Positions 17,783-43,539 of a DNA stretch of 64,000 bases are shown here, piece after piece. A program made the position numbers and the translations under genes. The stretch is from assembly GCA_938004065.1 (NCBI GenBank), contig CALKWM010000013.1:75914-139913 (forward strand), written 5' to 3'. This stretch comes from an uncultured bacterium (GTDB lineage Bacteria; Patescibacteriota; JAHJAL01). The notes under the pieces were generated by a model, which did no database searches, was not told the DNA's origin, and was given only the letters and a program-made list of their open reading frames with translations. Numbering within the stretch: the first letter of the stretch is position 1; every line of letters starts with the position of its first letter.

Positions 17783-17854
17783 TCCGGGGTAGCTCAGCGG
17801 TAGAGCAATTGACTGTTAATCAATGGGTCGTGGGTTCGAGCCCCACCCCCGGAG
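17783..17854 (+). tRNA. tRNA-Asn (anticodon GTT)
   Basis: Acceptor TCCGGGG pairs with CCCCGGA. D-arm is gctc-agcggta-gagc. Anticodon stem-loop is attga-CTGTTAA-tcaat. T-arm is gtggg-ttcgagc-cccac. Discriminator is G. Confidence 0.85.
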
Positions 17855-19435
17855 TATTATGGGATTTCGAGCGTATGCATTGAACAACTGTTCTTTGTTT
17901 ACGCTCTTTTTCATAGGTTCTAACATTCTTTTTATTCTATCAACTTCTTTTTTAGCTGGTATGAGAAAAGAGTAAAAGGAAAGAAGCTCTAAAAAGAGCT
18001 TCTGGTCCTTAAGGATAAAATTCGAGCCAAGAGAAATAAAGATTTCTTTTTTGGTTTCAATATCACCTTCATTAAATCTGATATAAGCATATTCGGCTAT
18101 TCCCAAATGTTTTTCGGCAGTTTCTAACCAGCTATTAAGTCTTTTATCAGAATTTTCGATAACTTCATTGATTCTACTTTTTTCTTTTAGGAGATCTGAT
18201 TTTTTGGTGATATATTCTTCTTCATTTAACTCGTTATTCAGGCGTAGCTCTAACAATCGGTCTAATTTTTTAGTACAATCAGTGTAGGCTTTATGCTGTG
18301 AGGCGATGATCAGGTTACGATCATTCGCTTCTTTTTTATTGTGCTTTTTGAGTTCTCCATAGAGATATTCGTGAAAGTCGGGTGGAATTGTAAATGAAGA
18401 TATAATTTCGTTGATCTGCTTTTCCAATTCTTTTACTTCTATACCTTTTTGATAGCATTTTTGCTTTCTGTGTTTTGTGCAGTGGTAGTAAGTATATTGG
18501 TGAATATTACCGTTTTTTTGTTTCTTGATTTTGGTTTCGGCGGTGATAGAGGCTCCACATTCTCCACACTTGATCAAACCAACATAAGCAAAGACTCTAT
18601 TTTTGGGTCTTGGTTTGCCTTCTCTACCTAAAATGAGTTGGATGCGATCATATTCTTCAATAGAGATAATTGCTTCATGCTTGCCTTTAAACCATTCGCC
18701 ACTATTTTTTGGATATTCAAATTCTCCATAATAAAAAGAACTGGTGAATATTCGGTAAATAGTGCTTCGGGAAAATTCCTTTCCTTGGCGGTTTGTTAAT
18801 TTCCATTTACTAAGGGCTATATGTCTAATTTGTGGGGGAGTGTATTTTCCGGTTAGCATAAGATCAAACATTCTACGGACCAACTCGAAACGGTCCGGAT
18901 CTTTGATAATTTCTTTTTCACCTTTCCGTTTAAAGGGATTGTGCATATAGCCAAGTGGGGCGTAGGTTGGAAGCCAACCACGTTTTGCTTTGGTCCGAAG
19001 ACCTCTTCTGGTATCAGTACTTAGGTCCATGATAAATTGATTGGCTACGCCCAATTCTACAGCCATAACGATAACATTATCAGTGGGATAGTAGCTTTGA
19101 CTATGAGTTTGAATATGTTTGATTATTCCTTGTTGAATCAACCAACTAATTTGACCACCGTCAATGGGGTTACGAGCTAATCGATTTAATTTCCAACATA
19201 ATATGCCCTGAGCTTCACCTTTGTTTATTCTTTGAATCATTTCGTTAAATATTTCTCTTCCTGGTGCTTTGGCTGATTTTGATTCAGAAAGAATTTCTAC
19301 AATGCGTATGTTTTTTTGTTCAGCAATTTTGGTTAATTCCTGAATCTGTGAATCAATTGAAGCCATTTGTCGATCTTCGTTTTCGGTTGATTTGCGAGCA
19401 TAAAGGAAATATTTTAGTCTTTGATCGTTTTTCAT
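17816..19435 (-). CDS. Large serine recombinase (integrase type); its 3' end overlaps the tRNA-Asn 3' end
   Basis: N-terminal resolvase catalytic domain YARKSTENEDRQMASIDSQ. Recombinase domain and a Cys-rich zinc ribbon (CGECGAS...YYHCTKH). 539 aa. Confidence 0.8.
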   Translation of the reverse strand: MKNDQRLKYFLYARKSTENEDRQMASIDSQIQELTKIAEQKNIRIVEILSESKSAKAPGREIFNEMIQRINKGEAQGILCWKLNRLARNPIDGGQISWLIQQGIIKHIQTHSQSYYPTDNVIVMAVELGVANQFIMDLSTDTRRGLRTKAKRGWLPTYAPLGYMHNPFKRKGEKEIIKDPDRFELVRRMFDLMLTGKYTPPQIRHIALSKWKLTNRQGKEFSRSTIYRIFTSSFYYGEFEYPKNSGEWFKGKHEAIISIEEYDRIQLILGREGKPRPKNRVFAYVGLIKCGECGASITAETKIKKQKNGNIHQYTYYHCTKHRKQKCYQKGIEVKELEKQINEIISSFTIPPDFHEYLYGELKKHNKKEANDRNLIIASQHKAYTDCTKKLDRLLELRLNNELNEEEYITKKSDLLKEKSRINEVIENSDKRLNSWLETAEKHLGIAEYAYIRFNEGDIETKKEIFISLGSNFILKDQKLFLELLSFYSFLIPAKKEVDRIKRMLEPMKKSVNKEQLFNAYARNPIILRGWGSNPRPID

Positions 19436-19611
19436 AGTAATAGAGATTAATGGATAAACTAATAGGACGGTTCTGGTTGACCCAACTTACCACTAATGGT
19501 TTGTCGGCAGAACCGCCCTGTTTAGGCGACAAAAATTCATTAGTGTAAAAAATTGTTGGGTCAACACTTATATTATAAAATATTTTAAGGTGCATAAAAA
19601 TCATTTTTTTG

Positions 19612-19947
19612 TCATGGAGGGTTTGTTTCGATCATGCCTTTATATCTTGATTTGTAGTATTTGATTTTAAGGCATTTAATACATCCGATTTTTTTGTTTA
19701 TAGTGTCGATGTAGATTATTCGGATTCTGCGATGGCAATTTGGGCAGGAAAACCAGTATCGTTGGCCATTAAACCTTGTTTTTGATATGGATAATTTAAT
19801 CGTTAAATCTTGAATAGAAACTTTTGATCGTATAAATTCTGATTTGGCAATCTGGTGGTAGTTTTTGATGATATTATCGATGTCAATTTTTTGATAATTC
19901 AAGTTTGTTAGATTTTTTCCTAAATCGTATGGCTTTATTGAATTCAT
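19612..19947 (-). CDS. Small zinc-ribbon protein (CxxC...CxxC), hypothetical
   Basis: FSCPNCHRR...GCIKCLK. Extremely AT-rich gene. Confidence 0.4.
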   Translation of the reverse strand: MNSIKPYDLGKNLTNLNYQKIDIDNIIKNYHQIAKSEFIRSKVSIQDLTIKLSISKTRFNGQRYWFSCPNCHRRIRIIYIDTINKKIGCIKCLKIKYYKSRYKGMIETNPP

Positions 19948-19952
19948 GTTTT

Positions 19953-20549
19953 TTAATTATTGTTAATAAATTCTTGTTTTTCTGATACAAAAGCATTTTT
20001 ACTTTGAATCTTGATATCAATAGATGGTGATTTGATTTGTTGGAGTAGAGATAGGGATGAATTAAATTGTCTATTGGCTCGATCAATTTCTTTACTAATT
20101 AGATAGCAGTATTGAATGCTTAATTTATTTACTGATTCTGAGCTAGAGCATTGACTGAGGATCCTTGAATATTGAATAATTTTTGTGTATGAGAGAGCAA
20201 TATTATTAGCCATGGCTTTTTCAATTGAGGTTGTGCATTGGTATTCTTTTATTATGTCTCGTGCGAATTGTATTGCCATTGGTCGGTATTCTTTTTTATG
20301 ACAAAAAGCTACAGTGTAACCTGTGTCTAAACCGAAGATATTAGAGAAATCATGAAATAATTCATCAATCTGTTTTTTCTTACTTTTTTTGCCAAGGTAA
20401 TGTTTTTTAAGAAGGATACCAATTTGATCTAATAAAACATCTGGATCGTGGTTTGTTTTGATTTTGTCTTTGACGAAATTTTTTATGTCTTCTGTGGTTT
20501 CCAATTGTTCAATTTGTTTTCTTTCAATTGGCTTAAGATTGTTTCGCAT
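19953..20549 (-). CDS. Hypothetical protein of the AT-rich element
   Basis: 198-aa ORF. Tightly packed with neighbours on the same strand. Confidence 0.4.
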   Translation of the reverse strand: MRNNLKPIERKQIEQLETTEDIKNFVKDKIKTNHDPDVLLDQIGILLKKHYLGKKSKKKQIDELFHDFSNIFGLDTGYTVAFCHKKEYRPMAIQFARDIIKEYQCTTSIEKAMANNIALSYTKIIQYSRILSQCSSSESVNKLSIQYCYLISKEIDRANRQFNSSLSLLQQIKSPSIDIKIQSKNAFVSEKQEFINNN

Positions 20550-20599
20550 AGTATTTAATTAATTATTAATAAATAAATAGATTTACCCCACACCCAATC

Positions 20600-21808
20600 T
20601 CACAAGTTAAGATTTGGGAATATTAATATTTTTTGTTGATTGTCTGGACCGTAATCTTGGACGATCAATCCCGCATTTTCCAACATAGGTAAAATTTCTT
20701 GTCTTAGTTTGTATTCAGGTAGAGGGTATTGGTAGGTTTGAAAGAATCTTTTCAAAATCTCTGGTCTACTTATTCCAATTCTTATATCTGGATAGTTTGA
20801 TATTTTTTCTTTATACAGAGGGAGAATAATTTCATTGAAAATACTATAAAGGTAGGGAGAGATATTTAATTCTTGGCTGACCGATATTTTGGACCATAGA
20901 TCATGGGCATAATTAATATCTTCTTCGTTGGCATATATGTTATTACCAACTTTTTTTCTAAACCAGAGATTAAGCAGGCTATAACATTTGACTAATGAAA
21001 TGAATCTTCCAATATCTCTTTGGTCGCGTGGTCTTAGTTTCTTTTTGGAGTCGAAAAATAATTTTTCTATTAAGTCGGGTTGTTCGATAATAATATTTTC
21101 TATTTTGGCTGATTTGATAGCCTCGATCCGATCAATAAGTGTTTGTCTTTCAGGATTATTTTGAATATTATTTTCATAAACTTCTTTGTTTGCTTCTTTG
21201 GTAATTTTAGTTTGTATTGACTCTTTTAATTTGTCTTGATTGGTGTCAGGTGAGAGCATGAGAAATCTTGTACTTTCCTGTTCGTCAATCTTGATACTTG
21301 CGCTACAGAAAATAACTGATGGGTAACCAATAATTATTGCTGTTTTAGTGCGGTGACCTCCTTTTTCTTTACGATCAGTTATCTTATTTATTAGTTCTTT
21401 TTTGTCATGAGAAAGTAATGGCCGGAATTTTTCGAGTAGATAATGATCTGGTTGGTCTAAAAAGATAATTATTTTTCTCGATAGGTTGATAATAGTTGTG
21501 TTGGTTTTTTGGTTGTATTCTCCTTGTTCATGAAAGAATGATGTTGGAGAACATGATCCAAGTATTAGTAAATCTTCTTTAGGGAAATAATTTGAGATTT
21601 CTAAGGGGATGTAACTTTTACCCGCTGATGAGGGGGCATTGAAACTAATATTGAATTGAGAATCATTTGTATATGCCGATAAACAACATAAAAATGTTGC
21701 TAGTTTATTGTGATTGTCTTTTTTGACCGTTAGGTCTAGAATTTTGATTATTTCCTCAGGAGTAATTGGATTGAAATTTTTATTAATAGAAATATTATTT
21801 TCTTTCAT
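20600..21808 (-). CDS. P-loop NTPase, possibly a primase/helicase-like replication protein of a mobile element
   Basis: Walker A motif NAPSSAGKSY and a Walker B-like IIFLDQPD. Sits adjacent to the recombinase. Confidence 0.45.
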   Translation of the reverse strand: MKENNISINKNFNPITPEEIIKILDLTVKKDNHNKLATFLCCLSAYTNDSQFNISFNAPSSAGKSYIPLEISNYFPKEDLLILGSCSPTSFFHEQGEYNQKTNTTIINLSRKIIIFLDQPDHYLLEKFRPLLSHDKKELINKITDRKEKGGHRTKTAIIIGYPSVIFCSASIKIDEQESTRFLMLSPDTNQDKLKESIQTKITKEANKEVYENNIQNNPERQTLIDRIEAIKSAKIENIIIEQPDLIEKLFFDSKKKLRPRDQRDIGRFISLVKCYSLLNLWFRKKVGNNIYANEEDINYAHDLWSKISVSQELNISPYLYSIFNEIILPLYKEKISNYPDIRIGISRPEILKRFFQTYQYPLPEYKLRQEILPMLENAGLIVQDYGPDNQQKILIFPNLNL

Positions 21809-21998
21809 GGTGATTTTGATTAATATATTTGGATAATTTTTTTTCTTCTGATGGAGTTAGGGGCTTGGAATAAACTACATAATACAAATTGAGAAATTTT
21901 TGATATTGGTCATAGGCCTCCTTATCACTTAAATCTTGATTAAAGTGTTTCTTTACCATTTGTTTAAACTTCTCAATTGTTTCTTTGCTGATAATCAT
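21795..21998 (-). CDS. Small hypothetical protein
   Basis: 67-aa ORF overlapping the upstream gene stop, as expected for an operon. Confidence 0.3.
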   Translation of the reverse strand: MIISKETIEKFKQMVKKHFNQDLSDKEAYDQYQKFLNLYYVVYSKPLTPSEEKKLSKYINQNHHERK

Positions 21999-22235
21999 TT
22001 ATGAGTGGTAAATCCTTGTCTTAAGCAGTTTTTGATTATATGCAAATAGAATTGGATCGACCTTGGCTTGGTGACTGAAATATAATTCGATAAGTCTATC
22101 GAGGTTGTCGTCGCGTATGATATAGAAGACGGTTGTGTTATCTTTGTTTTTTTCGGTGCTAGAAATACAGTATCCAGATGAAATAATGAACGAACAAAGA
22201 TTGAGATCTGATGATTTAAAATAGTTATTTTGCAT
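21999..22235 (-). CDS. Small hypothetical protein
   Basis: 78-aa ORF directly abutting the neighbouring gene. Confidence 0.3.
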   Translation of the reverse strand: MQNNYFKSSDLNLCSFIISSGYCISSTEKNKDNTTVFYIIRDDNLDRLIELYFSHQAKVDPILFAYNQKLLKTRIYHS

Positions 22236-22393
22236 AATTGTTTTATTAATAGTAATTTTTTTCCAGTTGCTATTTTTCAGAATAGAGTAAATATGAGATT
22301 CCCTGTATTGGTCCTCGTGAAAATTTGAATAATAAAAAAATATGGTTAGAAAACCATATTTTAAAAAGTTATTAACACCTATTTGAAGGACTG

Positions 22394-23515
22394 TTACTTC
22401 TTGATTATTTCGTATTTAACATAATTTAGGACATATCCATGACCTTTTTTCTTGTTTATCAAATTATGTCTAACATTTAAATATTTTATAAATCTTTTGT
22501 TTATCTTTTTTATGGCTTTGTTTATGGATGATATTCCAGATTTGTATTGAATTTTAGAATTTAATTCTGTACTGGATATTGGGTTTTTATTAAGTAGTAA
22601 AACAATTTTTTTGCAATTATTTTTTATAGGATATATGAATTTGCGGTTGAAAATTTCCTTATATATGCCGTATTTTTTGCTAATATGAATAGTTGTTTTC
22701 CCATTGTTGTCGTTTTGTTCACATATCAAGTTTTGATATGTGTCGTTATTAATAAGTTGGTCAATTATGTGTAAGTGGAGTCTGTGCACATCGGAATATA
22801 TTTCGTCAATATTGTATGAATCAGAATAGTCTATTTTGCCGGATATTAAACATTTTATTTCATTACTCATCAGTTTGTATTCCACATATTGATTGGTTAA
22901 ATATGTTTTATCAATTAATTTTTCTAATTTTTTAGATTCATAAATTATTAGATAAATATTTATGAGATTATTAAGACTAGCCCATAATTTGGTGATGCTT
23001 TCTGTTTCGTAGTTATTTTTTGTTGTTAAATAGTTTCGAAATGTATCTTCGTATTTAAATTTTTTTTCTTGTTTCTTTCTATTGTGTTTTTGATTAAGAA
23101 AAAATTTATTTACCAATTTTGAATATGGTGATTTGCCAATCTTGAATATAATTTCTTTTATGGTTTCGTAATTATATTTGGTGTTAATTATTGAAGGAGT
23201 GAATTCTCTTGCTGGGGGAAATAGTAATTCAGAATATTCGGTATTTGTTGTAATGAAATTGAGACTATTACTATTGTTTGTAATAATTGTTTGAAGCTTC
23301 TTAATTATTTTATTTGTAGTATTATTTATTTTATTCTGTTTGTTGGTTAAATTGTTGTAAGCATTTCGGCTTTCTTTTATTTTTTTGTTAAGTATTTCTT
23401 TGGTTATTGTGTTGTCATTTATAAATTTTATATAGTCTGCAACATTGATGAAGAATATTTTTGGGTCTTGTGAAATTAAATTAAAATTTTGATTAATTGA
23501 ATCGATTAAATTCAT
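22394..23515 (-). CDS. Hypothetical Asn/Lys/Ile-rich protein (373 aa) of the AT-rich element
   Basis: Long ORF in a segment of roughly 25% GC. No motif recognised. Confidence 0.45.
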   Translation of the reverse strand: MNLIDSINQNFNLISQDPKIFFINVADYIKFINDNTITKEILNKKIKESRNAYNNLTNKQNKINNTTNKIIKKLQTIITNNSNSLNFITTNTEYSELLFPPAREFTPSIINTKYNYETIKEIIFKIGKSPYSKLVNKFFLNQKHNRKKQEKKFKYEDTFRNYLTTKNNYETESITKLWASLNNLINIYLIIYESKKLEKLIDKTYLTNQYVEYKLMSNEIKCLISGKIDYSDSYNIDEIYSDVHRLHLHIIDQLINNDTYQNLICEQNDNNGKTTIHISKKYGIYKEIFNRKFIYPIKNNCKKIVLLLNKNPISSTELNSKIQYKSGISSINKAIKKINKRFIKYLNVRHNLINKKKGHGYVLNYVKYEIIKK

Positions 23516-23922
23516 ATAAATTGTAATAGAAATATAATATTTAAACTGTTTTTATGTTAGTTTAATTGTATTATCTTATCAAATAAAGACTGACTAGATT
23601 TGAATTTTGGTGATAAAAAAGATTATCATTAATGTGGTTAGTCATATTACTGAATAGTTAACCGTATAATTTAGAGCCTAAACCTTATAAAGTAATATTT
23701 TTAAGGCATGGCGAAAAAACCTTATGCATAAAGATGGTTCTTCTGACCAGCTTACTTGCATAAGGTCTATATCCGAAAGGGTATAGGGTGATCTCGAAAG
23801 AGAAAGCCGAGTTGTGTTAGAAGAGCCTTTTTTGTATTTTGAAAGAAAATTTATTTAGGATGGACAAAGTAATTATAAATTTGGTGTAATTCTTTATTTA
23901 AATAAATTATTGGGTAATTATT

Positions 23923-24672
23923 ATGGACAAAGAAAAAGAAGGTGAGCAAATAGTTTCGGTCAAATCGTCTAATTTTGGTTGCCTTACTGTTTTTATTTGG
24001 TTCGTAGGATTTATGTGTTTATTTTGGGGGTTAATAATAATTTCGAATTTTTCGATTGTTAATTTTGTTTCTGGTGTTTTGTTGGTAATCGCAGGTTTAA
24101 TTATGTTTCCACCTGTGAGAAATATGATTGAGAAAAAAACAGGAATAAAATTATCCAATGCTTTGTCTTGTGTGTTAGTTTTTATTCTTTTTGTAATAGG
24201 AATTGTGCTTGGTTCTTCATTTAGACAGATAAACAGTAATTTGGATAATAAGTCAGATAATAAACAAGAAACAATCAAGACAATAAATATGGAGAAGTTG
24301 GTCGGTTTTGATTTGCGGAACAAACAACCTATTGGGGATGAGAATATTTATACATATAATCCAGTAAAGAATAATGATTATTCTATTGCTGTTTTAACGA
24401 GTAAAACAGCTAGCAATATTCATGAAGATAGCTATTTATTGGAAAAAAATAGTAAAGATATTAATGGAATAAATGTTGAAGTTGGGTATAAAGATTTTTC
24501 AGAAAAGGATGGTGTAGTACTTACAAGAAAATATGAAGGTCTTGCTTTTGATTTTGAGTATAATAATCGATTTTACTCTGGGGAAGTTTCTAATTTAAAA
24601 GGTGAATCAGTAAAAGAGAAATTGGATGAAATTTTAGTTAATTTTCTGCAATCAGTCCAGGGTAAATCTTAA
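23923..24672 (+). CDS. Membrane protein with N-terminal TM helices and a C-terminal soluble domain
   Basis: Two or three hydrophobic helices in the first roughly 100 aa. Confidence 0.45.
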   Translation: MDKEKEGEQIVSVKSSNFGCLTVFIWFVGFMCLFWGLIIISNFSIVNFVSGVLLVIAGLIMFPPVRNMIEKKTGIKLSNALSCVLVFILFVIGIVLGSSFRQINSNLDNKSDNKQETIKTINMEKLVGFDLRNKQPIGDENIYTYNPVKNNDYSIAVLTSKTASNIHEDSYLLEKNSKDINGINVEVGYKDFSEKDGVVLTRKYEGLAFDFEYNNRFYSGEVSNLKGESVKEKLDEILVNFLQSVQGKS

Positions 24673-28485: not shown

Positions 28486-29244
28486 ATGGCGATGAAAATG
28501 TTTGAAAAAGCGATAAAAAATTTTATTCCTTATATGATAGCTATTCTTGTAGGGATAGTTTTTTGTTACTTGTTAATTAGTCTTGGTGGTAGTTTGTCGA
28601 GTGTATTTATTGAAATCTCTGTTTTTTTGTTAATATTGTTCATCTGTTATGTGATTTTTTTATTTGTAGATGAAAAAGAGAGTAATTATATTATGACTCT
28701 CGAAGAAGGCAGAGATATTGCAAATAATAATTTAGAAAAGGACCAAATTTTGTCTTTATTGTGTAGTTATGGGTCCCAAAGAGTTGGTCAAGATCAGGTT
28801 GTTTGGAATATGTTTGGTGCTTTTTGGGCTACAAATGCATTGTTATTGGTTAGTGTTTTTTCTGCTGATGAAGTATGGGATAAAAAATATGTTTGGTTAG
28901 TTGTGTCATTAATTGGTTTTATGGTCTCGGTGGCTTGGTTTTTAGTTCAGGATAGAATGTTGAATAGAATTGCTAGATATGAAATTTCAATTAAGTTTAT
29001 AGAAAAAACGTTAGTTTTTCCAAAACCATTGAGAACATATTCAAATTCTCCTCTAAGGTCCTTGATTGATGTAAGGGCTAGAAATGTTATGCGTTTGGTT
29101 GTTTTTTTGATCGGTGTGACTTGGTTGATAAAAGCCTTACTTGTATATGTACCTTCAATATTTATTATTGTAATTAAGTTTTTTGTTTGGATTGTTGCAG
29201 TGTTAGTATGGGTTATTGCATATTTGCTAAGTATTTTGTATTAG
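28486..29244 (+). CDS. Polytopic membrane protein, hypothetical
   Basis: Six or more hydrophobic helices. Confidence 0.5.
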   Translation: MAMKMFEKAIKNFIPYMIAILVGIVFCYLLISLGGSLSSVFIEISVFLLILFICYVIFLFVDEKESNYIMTLEEGRDIANNNLEKDQILSLLCSYGSQRVGQDQVVWNMFGAFWATNALLLVSVFSADEVWDKKYVWLVVSLIGFMVSVAWFLVQDRMLNRIARYEISIKFIEKTLVFPKPLRTYSNSPLRSLIDVRARNVMRLVVFLIGVTWLIKALLVYVPSIFIIVIKFFVWIVAVLVWVIAYLLSILY

Positions 29245-29312
29245 TAAAGTGGTTCTAACATCGTGTATTGCGCGGAGTTTTGTTTTGAAAGCACAGTTTA
29301 TGACTGTGTTTT
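29243..29312 (+). repeat. Repeat family B copy 2 (box 2 plus terminator hairpin, box 1 degenerate)
   Basis: Box 2 is gttctaacatcgtgtattgcgcggagtttt. The hairpin is the same aaagcacagtttatgactgtgttttt as in copy 1. Confidence 0.55.
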
Positions 29313-33387: not shown

Positions 33388-33614
33388 TACTTATCATTTT
33401 TAGCCTAAGCTCGTACTTGTATGGCTAAAGTTAGTATCTGTGAGTTATATTAGGTGAGTGTGAAGTAATTGGAATGGGAAAGTAGAATGGGAGTTTCTTG
33501 GAAATGTTTGTATTCTGAAATTTGTCGACAAGTATATAATTAAAAGAAGGGGAATGATAATTTTTTATTAAAAGTTGTTAAGATGTTGAGAAAAAGAAGA
33601 AATAATATAAATAA

Positions 33615-33715
33615 CTAGTGAGTGAGGGTGTGGGGTAACTAGATTGTAATTAGTAAAGAGGTTCTAACATCGTGTATTGCGCGGAGTTTTTGAAACGAGG
33701 TCTCGAACCTGTTTT
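33615..33715 (+). repeat. Repeat family B copy 3, upstream of the first DGR target gene
   Basis: Box 1 ctagtgagtgagggtgtggggtaactagattgtaat, then gttctaacatcgtgtattgcgcggagtttt, then a hairpin. Confidence 0.6.
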
Positions 33716-33838
33716 GGTTTGGTTTTTTTGGGTGATTTTTTTAGTATCGCCTGATATTTTTATGATTTAAAAGATTGACATAATTGGTTATTTTGTGCTA
33801 TAATGTAGTGATTGTCAGGATGGATTAATTAAAAAGAA

Positions 33839-35878
33839 ATGAAAAAATACAATCTAATAAAAGGCAGATATTGGGAGCAGAAATCTTTATCTTCGAAGGA
33901 TGATAAGGGTGTAAAAGAATGGCAAAAACCGTTTCAAGAGGCAACCGAGAAAGCGGCGAGGCGAACCGAGAGAGAACAGGGTGAAAAGATCCCGAGAGGC
34001 AATGTGGAGAAGATGATTGGCAATTATCTGGATCGCTGGGAGCGGATTGAAGAACAGCGTGGTGGATTGCTGCGAAGATTTTTGGAGCGAAAATATATCA
34101 TCAAGCCGGAAAATATCACCGATGACTATATCCGTAATGTGCTGCTGGGCAACTATGCTGAACTCAAAGGATACGACCGGGAAAAACTGGCCAATGCGGA
34201 AGTGAAAGCGCAAATTGGCAAAATGTTTGAGCAGGAAACGGGCAAAAATCCCAGTAATTTTTCCATATCCAAAAAAGAAAAAATTGATGAGCAAGAGCGC
34301 ATTGTAGCCGATCAGAAAGCCAGTCTGAACGGGTGGCTGGACTATCTGGGTGGGGAGGAAGCCAAAGAAAATTATCCCCGAGAGTTCCGTTATTGGGCGA
34401 TGGCGGAGGTGGTGAAACTGGGAGCGCAAAACAAGGACAAACTGGATTATACCAAGCGCGATCAATATACGGCTGCACCTTTCCCGGAATTGAATCAACA
34501 GGCGCTGGCCAAGGTGTTTGACGAGGTGAAGAGGAAACTGGAAAAAGAACCGTCGCAAATCGGGCTAAACGAAGAAAAAAAGAGGGAGGAATATGAAAAA
34601 AGATTAAAGGGAATGAATTTCGGCAAGCTTTATGGCTGGATGATTGATTATATCAATTCATTGAAACTGCCAATGGAGCGGCTGCCGATCACCCAGGGAG
34701 AGTGGAAAAAATTTGCCAAAAATTCTGATCCCAAAGAATTGACCAGGACAATTCAGGGATTCAATACCGGCTGGTGTATCGCCGGTGAAGGGACGGCCGG
34801 CAGTTATCTGAAAAATCAGGATATCTGGATATATTATTCGGCCGATCAGGAAGGTCAAAACTCAATCCCGCGGGCGGCGGTGGTGACGGATGGCTCAAAA
34901 GTTTTGGAGGTGCGCGGTATTATCCAGACCAGGGAAGTGAAACAGCATCTGGATGACTATATCGCGCCGGTGGTGGAAAAGAAGCTAAAGGAACTGCCGG
35001 GCGGGGAAGAATGGAAGGCGGGCATGGAAGACATGAAATATCTGGCGGAAATTCATTTCAAGCATATGCAAAAAAAACCATTCGACAAGAGTGATCTGGA
35101 ATTTGTCTATGAGCTGGATCATCCGATCAGGAGTATGGGTTACGGGAAGGATCCGCGCATCGAAGAGATCAGAGAAACCAGGGATCTCGAAGCCGATATA
35201 TTGACGGTATTTGATTGTCAGTCGAATGAGATTGTTCACAGTCCAGAAGAACTTAATCAAAACACCAAAGCATATGTCGGAAAATGGAATGTTGATGTCT
35301 GGCAGAAAGTCAAAGAATATCCCAACATCAAACATCTCTTCGAATCATTTCCGGATAAGAAAATATTCATGCGAAAACTGACCACTGATCCAAATGTTGA
35401 CTCGCCTCAGTCCGCCAAAGAAGCTCTGGAGAGTAAGAATATATATGTAGCTGATTGGGCAAAAGATATTTTAGCTAAAACCAAATTCAACCCGGAAAAA
35501 CGAGAATATGAACTGGTGCGATTTACGGTGGCCGATCTTGGGTTTCCTGACGGCGCAACCACGGCGGAAATAATTGGTACGAAAAATGATAAGGATGATA
35601 ATGGCCAACCCGCTCCTTTTACTAGAGGCCGAATGACTGAGCTAGGTCTCTATCTTTGTCCGGCCGAGGTCGGGCCACATTTACGGTTGCAAAACTCCAG
35701 TCAAGATTGGATGTTGATTGCCATGGAACCCATTATCGGCTCCGGTGGCGCTCCGAGCGTGTTCCGTCTGCACTACGGCGGCGGCCGGCTGGAGCTGGAT
35801 GCGTACTACGCTGGGCCGGACGAGCACTGGCTTTCTGCCTATCTTTGGGTCTTCTCTGCCCGCAAGTTTGATACTTAG
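33839..35878 (+). CDS. DGR target protein 1 (679 aa) with a C-terminal variable repeat in a putative C-type-lectin-fold domain
   Basis: The C-terminal roughly 40 aa are encoded by the VR that matches the TR except at adenines. Paralogue of the next gene. Confidence 0.75.
   Translation: MKKYNLIKGRYWEQKSLSSKDDKGVKEWQKPFQEATEKAARRTEREQGEKIPRGNVEKMIGNYLDRWERIEEQRGGLLRRFLERKYIIKPENITDDYIRNVLLGNYAELKGYDREKLANAEVKAQIGKMFEQETGKNPSNFSISKKEKIDEQERIVADQKASLNGWLDYLGGEEAKENYPREFRYWAMAEVVKLGAQNKDKLDYTKRDQYTAAPFPELNQQALAKVFDEVKRKLEKEPSQIGLNEEKKREEYEKRLKGMNFGKLYGWMIDYINSLKLPMERLPITQGEWKKFAKNSDPKELTRTIQGFNTGWCIAGEGTAGSYLKNQDIWIYYSADQEGQNSIPRAAVVTDGSKVLEVRGIIQTREVKQHLDDYIAPVVEKKLKELPGGEEWKAGMEDMKYLAEIHFKHMQKKPFDKSDLEFVYELDHPIRSMGYGKDPRIEEIRETRDLEADILTVFDCQSNEIVHSPEELNQNTKAYVGKWNVDVWQKVKEYPNIKHLFESFPDKKIFMRKLTTDPNVDSPQSAKEALESKNIYVADWAKDILAKTKFNPEKREYELVRFTVADLGFPDGATTAEIIGTKNDKDDNGQPAPFTRGRMTELGLYLCPAEVGPHLRLQNSSQDWMLIAMEPIIGSGGAPSVFRLHYGGGRLELDAYYAGPDEHWLSAYLWVFSARKFDT
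35735..35865 (+). repeat. DGR variable repeat VR1
   Basis: 131 bp aligned to the TR at 38441-38571. There are 24 mismatches, all at TR adenine positions. The 3' segment tgggtcttctctgcccgcaa is conserved and looks like an IMH (initiation of mutagenic homing) sequence. Confidence 0.85.
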
Positions 35879-35973
35879 ATTCTTAGACTCTTTGCTTTTC
35901 TTTTGACTCTTTGTAGCTTTGACCCTTTGACCCTTTGATTTTTGAATCGCGCATTAATTAAGAAAGAAAAATT

Positions 35974-38118
35974 ATGGAAAACAAAAAACAAAACCAAATG
36001 GAAGAGAGTAGATTTTTGCTCCACAAAGAGCCGGATCTGTATAAAAGTGAACCGGTGGAAAAAGCCGTAGAAAAATACAAGCGTCTCAAGAGAGCCGGAA
36101 TAGAAGTGGAGCCGATGGATATCGGTACCAAGGCAGGACGAGTAAAAGCATATATTGATCGGCTAGAAAAAATATACAATCCTGTGCCAGTCAAGAAAGA
36201 ATCAAATTTTGATCGTCGGGAGAGAAATATTAAACTGCTAAACAAGGTTTGGGAGAAACTGGGCACAAGAGAGAAAATCCTTCAGGAAAATATTACCATT
36301 GGCTTGAATGATATTCCTCAAAGTTACTACAACAACAAGGCCCGCATCATGATCGAACAGGGATACGGGGGTGATCTGGAAAGTGGCGGAGTGGTCAAAG
36401 AAAAATATACCGACAAGAAAGGCATAGAAAGAATTAACTATATTTTTCCGGAAGAGATGCGGGAGAAAGAGCTGGAGATAATCCGCAACAATCAAACCAG
36501 AAGTCTGGACAAGTGGCTGAACTACCTTAATTCTGTTGATGCCATGTATCCGGCTTGGGGCAAGCACTGGGCTTTTACCTCAATCCTCAAACTGGGCAAA
36601 TTCCAGAAAAAAGCGGAGATTGATGAAGAGGGAAATATCTCTAATGAGAGGGCAAAATTCCAAAAGAGAAAAAAAAGTACAGTTAACTCCTATCCACTGC
36701 TTAACCCCCGAGCGTTGGCGGTGACGATCGGAACAATGACCAATTATCTGGAAGAAAAAGCCAAGCCAAAAGAACAAAGAGAGTCAATTAAGAACGAAAG
36801 CAAAAAATTAAATGATGAAGAATTTCAAAAACTAATATCAGCAGAGAATTTTGGTGATATTTACGCTCAATTTCTGCTGGAAATGCCGGAGTATTCGGTA
36901 GAAGGTCTAAAAGGGACTGAAGGAAAGTGGGTCAAGTACGTGCAGATAGATGAATATGATGGCGATGATGTAGTCGATGAGCTAGTGAAAAGTATTGAAG
37001 GATATCCACTGGAATGGTGTACGGCCGATCCGGACACGGCCAGGAGTCAACTCGAGCAGGGAGATTTCTGGGTGTATTATTCTTTTAACGAAGACGGTGA
37101 GCCGGTAATTCCCCGTCTGGCCATTCGGATGGAAGGTCAAAACAAGATTGCCGAACCACCTCGCGGTATCGCACCCGATCAAAATCTGGATCCGTATATC
37201 GGATCGGTGTTGGAGAAGAAGCTACAAGACTTTGGCAGTGAAGGAGAGCTTTACAAAAAAAGAGTGGCCGATATGGAAAGATTGACGACTATTTGGCAGA
37301 AAGCAAAAGATGAGAAAGAAATAACTAAGGAAGAGCTGATATTTCTCTACGAAATCGAGGAGAATATTCAAGGGTTTGGGTATGAGAAAGATCCCCGCAT
37401 CAAAGAGATCAGAGAGACCAGAAACCCGGAAAAAGACATGCCGGTAGTATTTGATTGCCAGCCGGAAGAAATAGCTTACAGTCCAGAAAAACTAAACCCA
37501 AACACCAAAGCCTATGTTGGTAAGTGGAATGTGGAAATTTGGCAGGAGATTAGAAAGTACCCCGGCATCAAACATCTCTTCGAATCATTTCCGGACAAAA
37601 AAATCTTCATGCAAAAACTTACCACTGAGGCAAATATCAACTCACCCGAATCGGCTAAAGAGGCTCTGAAAGACAAAAATATCTATGTTTCTGATTGGGC
37701 GAAAGACATTCTTTCCGAAACCAAATTCAGCCCGGAAAAACGAGAATATGAACTGGTGCGATTTACGGTGGCCGATCTGGGATTTCCACGTGGCGCAACC
37801 ACGGCGGAAATAATTGGTACGAAAAATGATAAGGATGATAATGGCCAACCCGCTCCTTTTACTAGAGGCCGAATGACTGAGCTAGGTCTCTATCTTTGTC
37901 CGGCCGAGGTCGGGCCACATTTACGGTTGCAAAACTCCAGTCAAGATTGGATGTTGATTGCCATGGAACCCATTATCGGCTCCGGTGGCGCTCCGAGCGT
38001 GTTCCGTCTGCACTACGGCGGCGGCCGGCTGGAGCTGGATGCGTACTACGCTGGGCCGGACGAGCACTGGCTTTCTGCCTATCTTTGGGTCTTCTCTGCC
38101 CGCAAGTTTGATACTTAG
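35974..38118 (+). CDS. DGR target protein 2 (714 aa), paralogue of target 1 with an identical C-terminal VR
   Basis: The last roughly 115 aa are nearly identical to target 1. The final roughly 390 nt, VR included, are 100% identical to those of target 1. Confidence 0.75.
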   Translation: MENKKQNQMEESRFLLHKEPDLYKSEPVEKAVEKYKRLKRAGIEVEPMDIGTKAGRVKAYIDRLEKIYNPVPVKKESNFDRRERNIKLLNKVWEKLGTREKILQENITIGLNDIPQSYYNNKARIMIEQGYGGDLESGGVVKEKYTDKKGIERINYIFPEEMREKELEIIRNNQTRSLDKWLNYLNSVDAMYPAWGKHWAFTSILKLGKFQKKAEIDEEGNISNERAKFQKRKKSTVNSYPLLNPRALAVTIGTMTNYLEEKAKPKEQRESIKNESKKLNDEEFQKLISAENFGDIYAQFLLEMPEYSVEGLKGTEGKWVKYVQIDEYDGDDVVDELVKSIEGYPLEWCTADPDTARSQLEQGDFWVYYSFNEDGEPVIPRLAIRMEGQNKIAEPPRGIAPDQNLDPYIGSVLEKKLQDFGSEGELYKKRVADMERLTTIWQKAKDEKEITKEELIFLYEIEENIQGFGYEKDPRIKEIRETRNPEKDMPVVFDCQPEEIAYSPEKLNPNTKAYVGKWNVEIWQEIRKYPGIKHLFESFPDKKIFMQKLTTEANINSPESAKEALKDKNIYVSDWAKDILSETKFSPEKREYELVRFTVADLGFPRGATTAEIIGTKNDKDDNGQPAPFTRGRMTELGLYLCPAEVGPHLRLQNSSQDWMLIAMEPIIGSGGAPSVFRLHYGGGRLELDAYYAGPDEHWLSAYLWVFSARKFDT
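37975..38105 (+). repeat. DGR variable repeat VR2 (identical to VR1)
   Basis: Sequence identical to 35735-35865. Confidence 0.85.
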
Positions 38119-38440
38119 ATTCTTAGACTCTTTGCTTTTCTTTTGACTCTTTGTAGCTTTGACCCTTTGACCCTTTGATTTTTCTTGGGGTATTCTATTA
38201 TATTAAAATCAGATTGATTGTTTCGGACGGCTACGGCTTTCCGAAAATCATTCCGACCGGTGCAAGTTAAGTATGTTATCGGCCAAGGCTGGTAACAGAG
38301 ATTTGTATTTTGTCATTAAAAAAGAACAAACTTGGTGTGGTGTGCTCCGGGTGATTTTTGATCACAAATAATATTCAGTCCAGTCTTTTTTGAGCCAATC
38401 AACCAGACGGACGGTGGCGAGGATGGCACACCATACGAAA

Positions 38441-38571
38441 ATCGACTCCGATGGCAATCCGAACGTGTTCAATCTGAACTACAACGACGACCAGCTGAAG
38501 CTGAATGCGAACAACGCTGAGCCGGACAAGCACTGGAATTCTGACAATCATTGGGTCTTCTCTGCCCGCAA
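38441..38571 (+). repeat. DGR template repeat (TR)
   Basis: Adenine-rich copy of the VR. Every TR-VR difference maps to a TR adenine. The overlapping ORF 38390-38710 is judged non-coding. Confidence 0.85.
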
Positions 38572-38594
38572 TTATGCTCTTTTCCGTGACTTGA

Positions 38595-38915
38595 TCACAA
38601 ATCGCGGTTTTTTCTGGCTGGGTTATCTAGGTTTTTATGCCAGCCGCCCAGCATCCGACCGGCTTCGATTAATTTCTCGGAAATTGCTGTATATTTGCCA
38701 TTGGGAATGATCCTGGCTTCCCAAGCTATTGAAGTCAGGAATTTAAGGACATCGAGAGTTAGGATGCATTTGGTTAGCTGATCTTTTTTCTGATCTTTGG
38801 CGGAATAGTAGGCGGCATGTGTCAATTCCAACAGATCGAGAAATTTATTTTCAATTCTTTGGCCGATAGTAAAACGGGAGGTTTTGGGAATATGGGGAAC
38901 AAGATCAATCCACAA
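38595..38915 (-). CDS. avd: DGR accessory variability determinant (Avd-like four-helix-bundle protein)
   Basis: 106 aa. Resembles the four-helix-bundle / 23S-rRNA-intervening-sequence protein family (TIGQRIENKFLDLLELTHAAYY...) to which Avd belongs. Sits between the TR and the RT. Confidence 0.7.
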   Translation of the reverse strand: MWIDLVPHIPKTSRFTIGQRIENKFLDLLELTHAAYYSAKDQKKDQLTKCILTLDVLKFLTSIAWEARIIPNGKYTAISEKLIEAGRMLGGWHKNLDNPARKNRDL

Positions 38916-38962
38916 CAGATATCCCTCTTTGATCCGAAAGAGGATCGAAGGAAGTTCTTTAC

Positions 38963-38981
38963 GAGAGAGAGAGAGAGAGAG
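38963..38981. repeat. (GA)9 dinucleotide microsatellite between the avd and RT genes
   Basis: gagagagagagagagagag read directly from the sequence. Confidence 0.8.
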
Positions 38982-39034
38982 TAAGAAGGCGGCCGCGATT
39001 TCATAGTTATGAAGATATTATTTCAATAGATAAT

Positions 39035-39988
39035 TTGTTGGAGGCCTGGCGGGAATTTTTACGGGGTAAAAGAAAAAGAAAAGATGTAGCCGAGTTTTCA
39101 TTGAACCTGGCTGACAATATTATTTTACTGCATCGCGAGTTGTCTAACCAAACTTATTGCCATGGATCATATCAATCATTCAGAATTAATGATCCCAAGC
39201 CCAGGCAAATTCACAAAGCCAGTGTTCGTGACCGACTGGTGCATCATGCGGTTTATCGCGTTCTATACTCTTATTTTGACTGCAAATTTATCTTCGACTC
39301 CTATTCCTGTCGGCAAAAGAAAGGCACACATCGAGCTATTAACCGATTTCGAGAATTTGGGCGAAAAGTCTATCGCAACCATACTAAAACAGTTTGGGTA
39401 TTGAAGTGTGATATTAAAAAATTCTTTGCCAGCATTGATCAAGTGATTTTACTGGATATATTGAGAAAATACATTTCAGATGAAAAAGTTATGTGGCTAT
39501 TGGGACAGATTATTGACAGTTATTTTGAAAAAGGAAAGAATTTAGTTGGCCTGCCACTTGGTAATTTGACCAGCCAGTTGCTGGTTAATATTTATATGAA
39601 TGAGTTTGATCAATTTGTAAAAAGAGAACTGCGAGCAAAGTATTATATCCGTTATGCGGATGATTTTGTGGTTTTATCGAAGGATAGAAAATATCTGGAA
39701 AATTTATTGCCGACGATAGAAAGAATTTTGGAAGAGAGATTGAAGCTATCTTTACATCCGGAAAAATTATTTATTAAAACGCTCGCTTCTGGGATTGATT
39801 TCCTGGGATGGGTGCATTTTCCCCATCATCGAGTGCTGCGCACAACTACCAAAAGAAGGATGATGAAGAAATTACGCAGCAAAGAGCCAGAGGCTGGCAT
39901 GCTCGAATCATATCTGGGACTACTATTACATGGCAATACGTGGAAGTTAATGAAAAAATTGGATTGTATGTTGAGAGCGAATGAATAG
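39035..39988 (+). CDS. DGR reverse transcriptase
   Basis: RT motifs include YIRYADDFVVL (YADD). The DGR-specific motif-4 variant is LPLGNLTSQLLVNIY (LGxxxSQ in place of the group II QGxxxSP). Apparent TTG start. The in-frame upstream peptide SYEDIISIDNLLEAWREF suggests an earlier non-ATG start. Confidence 0.85.
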   Translation: MLEAWREFLRGKRKRKDVAEFSLNLADNIILLHRELSNQTYCHGSYQSFRINDPKPRQIHKASVRDRLVHHAVYRVLYSYFDCKFIFDSYSCRQKKGTHRAINRFREFGRKVYRNHTKTVWVLKCDIKKFFASIDQVILLDILRKYISDEKVMWLLGQIIDSYFEKGKNLVGLPLGNLTSQLLVNIYMNEFDQFVKRELRAKYYIRYADDFVVLSKDRKYLENLLPTIERILEERLKLSLHPEKLFIKTLASGIDFLGWVHFPHHRVLRTTTKRRMMKKLRSKEPEAGMLESYLGLLLHGNTWKLMKKLDCMLRANE

Positions 39989-40119
39989 CTAGTGAGCGAG
40001 GGTGTGGGGTAATAGTTGGCTCTCTATAAAACAAGTTCTAACATCGTGTATTGCATCCGCCCAAGGCGGACAGGCTGGAGTTTAGTTTTTGAAAGCACGC
40101 TTTGTAGGCGTGTTTTTGC
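39989..40119 (+). repeat. Repeat family B copy 4, carrying a nested GC palindrome
   Basis: ctagtgagcgagggtgtggggtaatag...gttctaacatcgtgtattgc, then the inserted atccgcccaaggcggacaggct, then ggagttt, then the terminator gcacgctttgtaggcgtgtttttgc. Confidence 0.6.
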
Positions 40120-41701: not shown

Positions 41702-43333
41702 ATGAATTTGAACTGGCGACGAAATTATTGGATAGTTCTAGCTCTGCTGAGTGTGGTGGGGCTATTGTTGCTAATGGGTGACTATCGGATAATTTCGTAT
41801 AACTGGCTGGTGGAGAAGGAAGATGAGGAGTTGGTTGGCAATAATTATGATAATACTGTGTACTTATTTGATGACTCGCAGGTGCATGATATTGAGATCG
41901 CGATCAGTGATGAGAATTATGATAAGATGATAGCGACATATCAGGAAACGGGCGAGAAGGATTATTTTCCGGCTGATGTGGTAATAGATGGGGTGACGAT
42001 AGAGAATGTCGGGGTGAGGTTAAAAGGGAATATGACCTTGAGAACTGTATTGGGAGAAGGTGGTGGCGAGGCGGAATTTGGTCCCGGTGGAGGAATGGGT
42101 CAGGATGGTCCGTCCGGTGGTTTTGGTGGTAGAGGAGAAAGGCCCGATTTACCTGATGGCATGGAAATGCCGGAAGGTATGAATTTTCCCGGGGGTGGTG
42201 ATGGAGAAGGTGATATGTCTTTACCGGTGGGAATGGGTATGCAGATGGAAATGACGGAAGAGTTACAGGATCGTTTGCCGATGTTGGTGAGGTTTGATGA
42301 ATATGTGGCCGGGCAAACCTATCAGGGTTTGAGCGAGATAGCACTGCGAATTGCGACGGGAGATGATGCTTTTAGTTTGTTGAATGAGCAGGTGGCTTAT
42401 GGAGCGCATAAGGTGGTTGGACAGATAGTGCCGGAGACTGCTTATGTAGCAGTACAAGTTGATGGTCAGGAGCAGTATGTATATGTGGTATCAGAAGTGA
42501 TAAATGAGGAATATGTTGAAAAACATTTTGGGGGTGATGGAGTTTTGTATAAAGCGGACAATTTTGTAGGATTTGATTATCTGGGAGATGATCCGACTTT
42601 GTATGTCGAAAAATATGAGCAGAAGACTATGATAAATGACTATGATCTGAAATATTTGATTGAGTTTTTGAAGTTTGTGGATCAGTCGAGTGATGAGGAG
42701 TTTGAGTCACAGTTGTCTGGCTGGCTGGATATAGATTTGTTGATGCGGATGTTGGCACTGGATGAGTTACTGACCAACAATGATTCATTCGGTGGAATGG
42801 GCAGTAATTATTATTTGTATTATGATCTTGATGAGGAAAAATTTTATTTTTTGAGTTGGGATATGAATCTGGCAATGGGTAATATGGGGGGTGGTGGACA
42901 AGGAATGCCGGGACAGATGGGATTTGATCGGGGTGAATTTGGTGACTTAGGAGAGGGGATGGGTGAAGAAGGTTTATTGCCGGAAGGATTTGAGTCGCCA
43001 GAAGGTTTTAACGGAGCCGAAGGATTTGGACCGGGTGGAAGGCAAGGATCAAACAAACTGAAAGAAAGATTTATGGCCAATGAAAAATATAAGCAGATGT
43101 ATGACGAAGTTTATGAAAGTCTGAAGAAAATGTTATTTGATGGGGGTTATCTGGAAAAACGAGCTGATTATTTGTCAGGAGTGTTTTTGGATTGGAATGA
43201 ATACACTGGATTAATGAATGAAGAAGATTATATCAATGGACTGGAGACGCTGAAGGATTTTATTGCTAATGGTCCCAAAAATGAGAGTTTTGGAGATGGA
43301 GTTGAGGCGGTAGATGAATTTCCAGCAAACTAG
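41702..43333 (+). CDS. CotH-family (atypical kinase-like) protein with Gly/Met/Glu-rich low-complexity inserts
   Basis: CotH core ...GVRLKGN..., ...NYYLYYDLDEEKFYFLSWDMNLAMG.... Two G/M/E/P-rich inserts. N-terminal TM/signal segment. Confidence 0.65.
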   Translation: MNLNWRRNYWIVLALLSVVGLLLLMGDYRIISYNWLVEKEDEELVGNNYDNTVYLFDDSQVHDIEIAISDENYDKMIATYQETGEKDYFPADVVIDGVTIENVGVRLKGNMTLRTVLGEGGGEAEFGPGGGMGQDGPSGGFGGRGERPDLPDGMEMPEGMNFPGGGDGEGDMSLPVGMGMQMEMTEELQDRLPMLVRFDEYVAGQTYQGLSEIALRIATGDDAFSLLNEQVAYGAHKVVGQIVPETAYVAVQVDGQEQYVYVVSEVINEEYVEKHFGGDGVLYKADNFVGFDYLGDDPTLYVEKYEQKTMINDYDLKYLIEFLKFVDQSSDEEFESQLSGWLDIDLLMRMLALDELLTNNDSFGGMGSNYYLYYDLDEEKFYFLSWDMNLAMGNMGGGGQGMPGQMGFDRGEFGDLGEGMGEEGLLPEGFESPEGFNGAEGFGPGGRQGSNKLKERFMANEKYKQMYDEVYESLKKMLFDGGYLEKRADYLSGVFLDWNEYTGLMNEEDYINGLETLKDFIANGPKNESFGDGVEAVDEFPAN

Positions 43334-43405
43334 TGAGGAGGGGTGTGGGGTAACTAGCATGTAACCACTAAAGCGGTTCGAACTAAAGTGTCCACCGAAT
43401 CGGCG
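43329..43405 (+). repeat. Repeat family B copy 5 (box 1 supplies the TAG stop of the CotH gene)
   Basis: aaactagtgaggaggggtgtggggtaactagcatgtaacc, then gcggttcgaac...ccaccgaatcggcgg. Confidence 0.55.
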
Positions 43406-43539
43406 GATGCATGGATTATTTAGATGAGAGGAACCGAGCTTTACTCTCGTAGTTCGCTACTCTCATTGTTCCCCTTTGTTAAGGAATAAAAAAAGACCAA
43501 ATGAATGGTTATTTATGAAAAATCAATGTATCTAGTTGT

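Follow-up and report, generated by a model that had tools for sequence, protein, structure and literature searches.

A chromosomal Patescibacteria locus with the features of a diversity-generating retroelement, two lectin-fold targets, and a conserved RNA structure beside its template repeat

Results

We analyzed a 64,000-nt stretch of DNA from an uncultured Patescibacteria bacterium (GenBank assembly GCA_938004065.1, contig CALKWM010000013.1, positions 75,914 to 139,913; hereafter the window, numbered from its first letter). We conclude, with a probability of roughly 0.93, that it carries a chromosomal diversity-generating retroelement (DGR) of the type found in Patescibacteria, the candidate phyla radiation (CPR). 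In order, the cassette comprises two target genes, a 322-nt noncoding stretch, a template repeat (TR), the accessory gene avd in reverse orientation, and a reverse transcriptase (RT) gene (Table 1). An earlier note on this DNA had read it as a case of adenine-specific mutagenic retrohoming, and this is clearly the best reading, given adenine-only mismatches, a DGR-type RT, an Avd protein, variable repeats (VRs) at gene 3′ ends within a lectin fold, and comparable loci in 25 other species.

Alignment of the three repeat segments with MAFFT gave a gap-free match of the TR to both VRs, in agreement with the alignment made by hand in the earlier note. In the window VR1 and VR2 share one sequence. 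As the note had counted, 24 of the 131 positions distinguish this sequence from the TR, and all of them are template adenines (14 A→G, 5 A→C, and 5 A→T). With 38 adenines in 131 nt, the hypergeometric probability of finding 24/24 mismatches on A is p = 8.7e-17. The VR begins on a codon boundary (frame 0) in both target open reading frames (ORFs). When the codon positions of the variable sites were tabulated, as had been proposed, the mismatches were distributed 11/13/0 over positions 1/2/3, and the third codon positions of the TR region contain zero A. The amino acid is altered in all 20 changed codons. AAC or AAT accounts for ten of the 24 variable codons of the TR, in line with the remark that many template adenines sit in such codons, and the TR can encode ~1e21 protein variants.

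The TR and VRs are identical at their 3′ end, over 21 nt (TTGGGTCTTCTCTGCCCGCAA) rather than the 20 nt first given. The repeat boundaries are uncertain by a few bases: three nucleotides upstream (TR AAA, VR ATT) could contribute two extra A→T mismatches before a G/C mismatch is reached, and BLAST lengthens the match by 5 nt downstream while adding one T/G mismatch. A further upstream extension of the TR was rejected, as ungapped TR/VR similarity there (~15/34 positions) is too weak and includes non-A mismatches. The window holds no further VRs: when both strands were scanned for matches to the 93 TR bases other than A, only the TR, VR1, and VR2 emerged (93/93; next best 40/93).

The closest relative of the RT among solved structures is 8ub7_A (328 aa; E 8.8e-39 across 282 residues), which we take to be the Bordetella phage DGR enzyme bRT. 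The two have in common the motifs (I/L)G(S/N)LTSQ and Y(M/A)DD; group II intron and retron RTs match the window RT at E 1e-17 or worse. The avd product scores 58.8 bits against the Pfam family PF22296 bAvd, for which the cut-off is 40, and has no sequence match among solved structures. Within the avd–RT intergenic region (38923-38982) there are, in addition, an inverted repeat of 10 bp (38926-38951) and a (GA)8 tract (38966-38982).

Target 1 has no Pfam or NCBIfam match. It is 51% identical to target 2 overall and ~100% identical over the last ~330 nt. More than 366 homologues of target 2 were found, all unnamed and all from Patescibacteria. An AlphaFold2 model of target 2 has a predicted local distance difference test (pLDDT) score of 89.4. 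The VR maps onto a C-type-lectin/formylglycine-generating enzyme (FGE)-type fold, at the 3′ ends of both ORFs. The variable region lies in a divergent C-type-lectin fold that closes an otherwise uncharacterised, CPR-wide protein of ~700 aa. The target lacks any recognisable N-terminal domain or membrane anchor, and its family is apparently cytoplasmic. Some members of the family (P0042, P0089, P0090 (leucine-rich repeat), and P0076 (DUF4256)) carry another C-terminal module in place of the lectin-like VR domain, a pattern suggestive of interchangeable binding ends on an N-terminal module that stays conserved.

We searched for target relatives using one genome per species. Relatives were found in 338 species, all of them Patescibacteria where credibly named, and 80 loci were taken for comparison. 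DGR evidence lies beside the homologue in ~35 of the 80. An orthologous RT is present in 22 of them (59-68% identity), and RT orthologues adjoin TR/VR pairs in >20 species. A TR/VR pair of 130-145 nt occupies the equivalent position in 25 of the ~35 loci, with 84-100% of its mismatches on adenines. In most DGR-bearing relatives, Avd is encoded on the strand opposite the RT, in the same place and orientation as in the window. For other family members no DGR lies within 8-10 kb; one such case is a Magasanikbacteria protein that is unchanged on 24 contigs. These comparisons therefore indicate that the family is a conserved CPR protein, which DGRs target in many lineages though not in every one.

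The same genome is present in at least three assemblies: the window, a contig designated L001 (ENA ERZ724101), and GCA_036848155.1. RT, avd, and TR are intact and identical across all three, and over 22 kb L001 matches the window at 100% identity apart from both target 3′ ends and two single-nucleotide polymorphisms (SNPs). VR1 and VR2 are also identical to each other in L001, but this VR version differs from that of the window at 25 VR positions, of which 24 are TR adenines. GCA_036848155.1 carries the window version. A further 11 differences between the two versions lie upstream of the TR homology (35641-35726). About half are synonymous; a DGR cannot produce such differences, and they look like paralogue divergence. 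Whether the versions belong to one gene or to two, they derive from one TR and differ almost only at TR adenines, which argues for recent activity.

The identity of VR1 and VR2 calls for its own explanation. Positions 35552-35945 and 37792-38185 are 100% identical within each of the three assemblies, while the version differs between assemblies. We somewhat favor the view that the genome has two different VRs and that assemblers collapsed a ~200-nt bubble between identical flanks, so that one version is shown twice. The version changes between otherwise identical assemblies even though VR1 equals VR2 in every one of them, the 11 non-VR sites resemble paralogue divergence, and target 1/target 2 identity climbs smoothly toward the 3′ end (75%, 94%, 100%). 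In addition, a target-1-specific SNP at 35916 is seen in two assemblies and lost in the window. Set against assembly collapse, no mixed-version assembly is on record. The alternative is real gene conversion that keeps both target 3′ ends identical, with which the extension of 100% identity to 80 nt beyond the stop codon is consistent. The same question, assembly collapse or real duplication, arises at a locus in another species (L041:11747-15477), where target, TR, and partial avd are duplicated in tandem and both VRs, like both TRs, are identical.

We next describe the RNA in which the TR is embedded. An RNAalifold consensus from a 17-species alignment contains seven helices with 52 pairs, 41 of which show compensatory changes. 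On this consensus 92% of paired cells can pair, compared with 74% after shuffling (0/500 shuffles reach the observed value) and ~41% when partners are slid by 1-3 columns. The window sequence forms 51 of the 52 pairs. A covariance model found exactly one copy per DGR locus at 30 loci, 13 of them outside the training set and each abutting the TR (e.g., L023:4847-5086 and L015:1523-1762), and no copy away from TRs in 1.2 Mb. Two hairpins of this upstream domain have in common a CGG-YWA-SGG-CU loop motif, and its 12-bp helix 4 (38335-38346 with 38425-38436) ends 4 nt short of the TR. TATAAT/TATACT-like boxes occur in related loci at the place equivalent to the putative promoter (Table 1). A search of Rfam 15 with the whole window gave no family at gathering thresholds for the TR RNA, the RT-associated motifs of Weinberg et al. 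2017 included, and 38100-39100 yielded only chance snoRNA matches (E up to 10).

On the other side of the TR, every one of 24 related loci carries a GC-rich hairpin of 6-10 bp and then a U-run; the stem sequences vary by species. RNAalifold detected no conserved structure downstream of this hairpin, antisense to avd; sequence is conserved there because it codes for avd. In the Bordetella element, reverse transcription halts at a duplex against the 5′ end of the TR, and Avd binds a stem-loop just past the TR (bioRxiv 10.1101/2023.10.23.563531). Similar stem-loops were reported in 207 of 278 DGRs, CPR included, in a survey that covered only 40 nt on the 5′ side of the TR and 100 nt on its 3′ side (bioRxiv 10.1101/2023.10.23.563531). 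By analogy, helix 4 may set the 5′ limit of copying, coinciding with the end of TR/VR homology, and the 3′ hairpin may be an Avd-binding and/or terminator element. The remaining RNA scaffold would then have been shifted upstream because the reversed avd occupies the downstream side.

The 3′ boundary of the repeats was examined for an element like the initiation of mutagenic homing (IMH) sequence and its TR counterpart, IMH*. The earlier note's suggestion of such an element is plausible: an identical, nearly A-free end followed by divergent flanks fits it, although the expected GC-rich inverted repeat is missing. In most related loci (e.g., L018, L021, L023, L041, L071, and L072), the TR ends in CGAAAG and the VR in CGCAAG, a fixed A/C difference at a synonymous site. 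This difference would mark the 3′ homing limit and behaves like an IMH*/IMH boundary. The window TR has CGCAA, as does its VR, unlike most relatives. At many related loci, the TR GAAAG can pair with a CUUUU tract just ahead of the 3′ hairpin. Arrays of CTTWGA follow the VRs in related species too, where 8- and 16-nt spacings dominate. The mean number of CTTWGA per 100 nt is 2.8 after DGR-linked homologues versus 1.4 after others (p 2e-4), and such arrays also occur at some loci without a detected DGR.

Table 1. Features of the retroelement cassette and their positions in the window
Feature	Position	Strand	Description
Target gene 1	33839-35878	+	ORF, 679 aa
VR1	35735-35865	+	last 44 codons of target 1 ahead of KFDT* tail
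8-nt array 1	35866-35945	+	units GATTCTTA / TTTGACCC, core CTTWGA; Tandem Repeats Finder (TRF) period 8; directly after VR1 and stop
Target gene 2	35974-38118	+	ORF, 714 aa; paralogue of target 1
VR2	37975-38105	+	same sequence as VR1 in the window assembly
8-nt array 2	38106-38185	+	core CTTWGA; TRF period 8; after VR2
Promoter-like site	38175-38204	+	TTGATT-18-TATATT; putative, from a consensus scan; precedes the TR RNA
Structured RNA domain	38204-38444	+	~240 nt, 7 helices, directly 5′ of the TR; covariation
TR	38441-38571	+	131 nt, 38 A; noncoding in its context
GC-rich hairpin	38584-38613	+	CCGTGA...TCGCGG, then six T; 13 nt past the TR; overlaps avd stop-codon end
avd	38595-38915	-	106 aa; between TR and RT; Pfam PF22296 bAvd
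DGR reverse transcriptase	39035-39988	+	316-317 aa; RVT_1; LGNLTSQ and YADD motifs

Several observations weigh against this reading of the locus. The earlier note had held that any mismatch off adenine would refute its claim; the window has none, but the L001 version of the VR combines 27 A-site mismatches with one TR C→G change at the equivalent of window position 35811 (27/28 on A). The avd product reaches 69 bits against NCBIfam DivGenRetAVD, under the equivalog cut-off of 80. No GC-rich inverted repeat is found within ~80 nt after the VR. Such a repeat is needed by the Bordetella and Legionella elements (PMC5758913), and Wu et al. found GC-rich inverted repeats in only 34% of DGRs (PMC5758913). 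The cDNA priming site is not assignable, and the two VR versions may be the VRs of two paralogues, not variants within a population. Finally, the argument for current activity is built on assembled sequence.

One rival reading is that the cassette is a relic, once active and now inactive, with the adenine pattern a fossil. In its favor, two of the three assemblies share a single VR version, and the Avd score is low by the NCBIfam standard. Nevertheless, RT, avd, and TR are not only intact but identical in the three assemblies, the YADD and LGNLTSQ motifs are kept in the RT, and 51/52 consensus RNA pairs form. Moreover, between flanks that are 100% identical the VR versions diverge at 24 TR-adenine sites, which would make diversification recent relative to any other change. 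We therefore regard a relic as improbable. Ordinary repeat divergence, in which the TR is a decaying noncoding copy of the gene 3′ end made A-rich by AT-biased mutation, could draw on the AT-rich genome (GC ~35%) and on the 14 of 24 differences that are G in the VR and A in the TR, but it is effectively refuted, because strand-symmetric AT drift of a dead copy would give T as often as A (24/24 differences have A in the TR and 0 have T), and because there are zero third-codon-position differences, the same pattern recurs beside an RT in 25 species, and the TR copy sits in a conserved structured RNA.

The surroundings of the cassette are those of a cellular chromosome. An ABC transporter lies upstream and VTC, DUF4956, and CotH genes lie downstream, with DnaG, RpoD, and methionyl-tRNA synthetase (MetRS) genes elsewhere in the window. 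The named MetRS relatives are from Candidatus Dojkabacteria (~52% identity). Together, the target homologues and the MetRS relatives point to a Patescibacteria bacterium as the host.

GC skew is unusually strong across the window (0.3-0.5), and nearly every gene is on the + strand. The DGR cassette (33800-40000) has a higher GC content of 0.41-0.47 and a far weaker GC skew of 0.08-0.24, and the weaker skew hints at a foreign origin. Direct repeats occur on both sides of the cassette (33607-33680 and 39981-40054). We rejected the idea that these are attachment sites of a mobile island because the motifs recur after other genes (29252, 43330, and 20583); they look like a genome-wide post-gene element. 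Indeed, a ~100-nt repeated element follows several gene ends (29180-29300, 33607-33725, 39981-40100, and 43330-43420), and two of its copies bracket the cassette. Its layout is CTAGTGAG.GAGGGTGTGGGGTAA, a spacer, AAAG.GGTTCTAACATCGTGTATTGC, and a terminator-like hairpin. The core, GGGTGTGGGGTAA, is also found at 20583-20595 (-) and after a target homologue in another CPR genome (L043). This intergenic element has no Rfam match.

Two other features of the window were recorded. The Rfam family LOOT RNA (RF03000; gathering score 46.4) matches at 23675-23808 (+) with 70 bits. On the minus strand, the gene for a large serine recombinase (17816-19435) overlaps the end of a tRNA-Asn gene (17783-17854). 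It is followed, in the region 17783-24000, by a low-GC block (0.25-0.32) with minus-strand genes and reversed AT skew, which is possibly an integrated element.

Discussion

Taking the Bordetella phage paradigm as a guide to the transcript ends, cDNA priming, the roles of individual helices, and the homing step, we can outline how the element might work. An RNA of ~400 nt would be transcribed from ~38205 to the hairpin and U-run at ~38613, comprising the structured 5′ domain, the 131-nt TR, and the 3′ stem-loop. RT and Avd would copy the TR into cDNA, misincorporating opposite template adenines, and this cDNA would take the place of the homologous VR in the 3′-terminal part of target 1 and/or target 2. 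As a result, up to 24 codons on the lectin-fold surface could be recoded (~1e21 proteins), while the A-free scaffold codons would be spared.

A more speculative proposal is that these loci represent a Patescibacteria DGR lineage with a rearranged RNA, in which an upstream scaffold and a 3′ stem-loop replace the downstream spacer, and with target recognition by CTTWGA arrays in place of a cruciform. We consider this tentative and rather less probable than its negation. The ~240-nt seven-helix domain may be a protein-binding scaffold, and the helix that abuts the TR may resemble the Bordetella "cPRT stop" duplex. Neither the upstream structured RNA nor the 8-nt arrays are described in Rfam 15 or in the literature searched, the coverage of which is incomplete, and these are the only items at this locus that are possibly new.

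The enrichment of DGRs in CPR bacteria is already known, and a locus with the standard CPR layout adds little as a DGR. Its interest lies partly in the targets. A large unannotated CPR-wide family, with hundreds of members and no Pfam domain, becomes tied to DGR diversification in about two-fifths of the species sampled, and its C-terminal lectin-like domain would thereby be marked as a ligand-binding surface under diversifying pressure. The 30 loci also provide a clean comparative set on the RNA from a DGR type as yet without biochemical study, and the well-supported upstream structure could guide reconstitution. In addition, the locus serves as a cautionary case, as metagenome assemblies can display the same VR twice when the genome itself probably carries two distinct VRs.

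Among characterized systems, the DGR of Bordetella phage BPP-1 (mtd-avd-TR-brt) is the prototype. The window element resembles it in its adenine-specific differences at codon positions 1 and 2, its AAY codons, the Avd accessory protein, the C-type-lectin-fold variable domain, and an identical 3′ segment that is poor in A and gives way to divergent flanks. In both, a duplex lies against the 5′ end of the TR and a stem-loop immediately follows its 3′ end (bioRxiv 10.1101/2023.10.23.563531). Unlike in BPP-1, however, the window avd is reversed and comes after the TR, the structured RNA precedes the TR instead of occupying a ~140-nt spacer after it, and an 8-nt tandem array follows the VR where BPP-1 has a GC-rich inverted repeat. 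A cellular rather than phage-borne location and a pair of targets are further differences. Among the closest known systems are also Treponema denticola TvpA and other DGR variable proteins with a C-type-lectin fold.

The closest known systems overall are the CPR DGRs, classed as architecture B3 by Wu et al. 2018 (PMC5758913) and as DGR clade 2 by Roux et al. 2021 (PMC8144416). Architecture B3, TR-(avd)-RT, accounts for 90% of CPR DGRs and is almost absent elsewhere (Wu et al. 2018, PMC5758913). The window element agrees with these DGRs in gene order, in the reverse-strand avd between TR and RT, in its chromosomal Patescibacteria location, in its C-terminal VR, and in a target that lacks a recognisable N-terminal domain or membrane anchor. 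There is no essential difference between them, although the window locus and its target family are unannotated in the sources searched. The element is typical of CPR DGRs, and so the finding is not new in kind.

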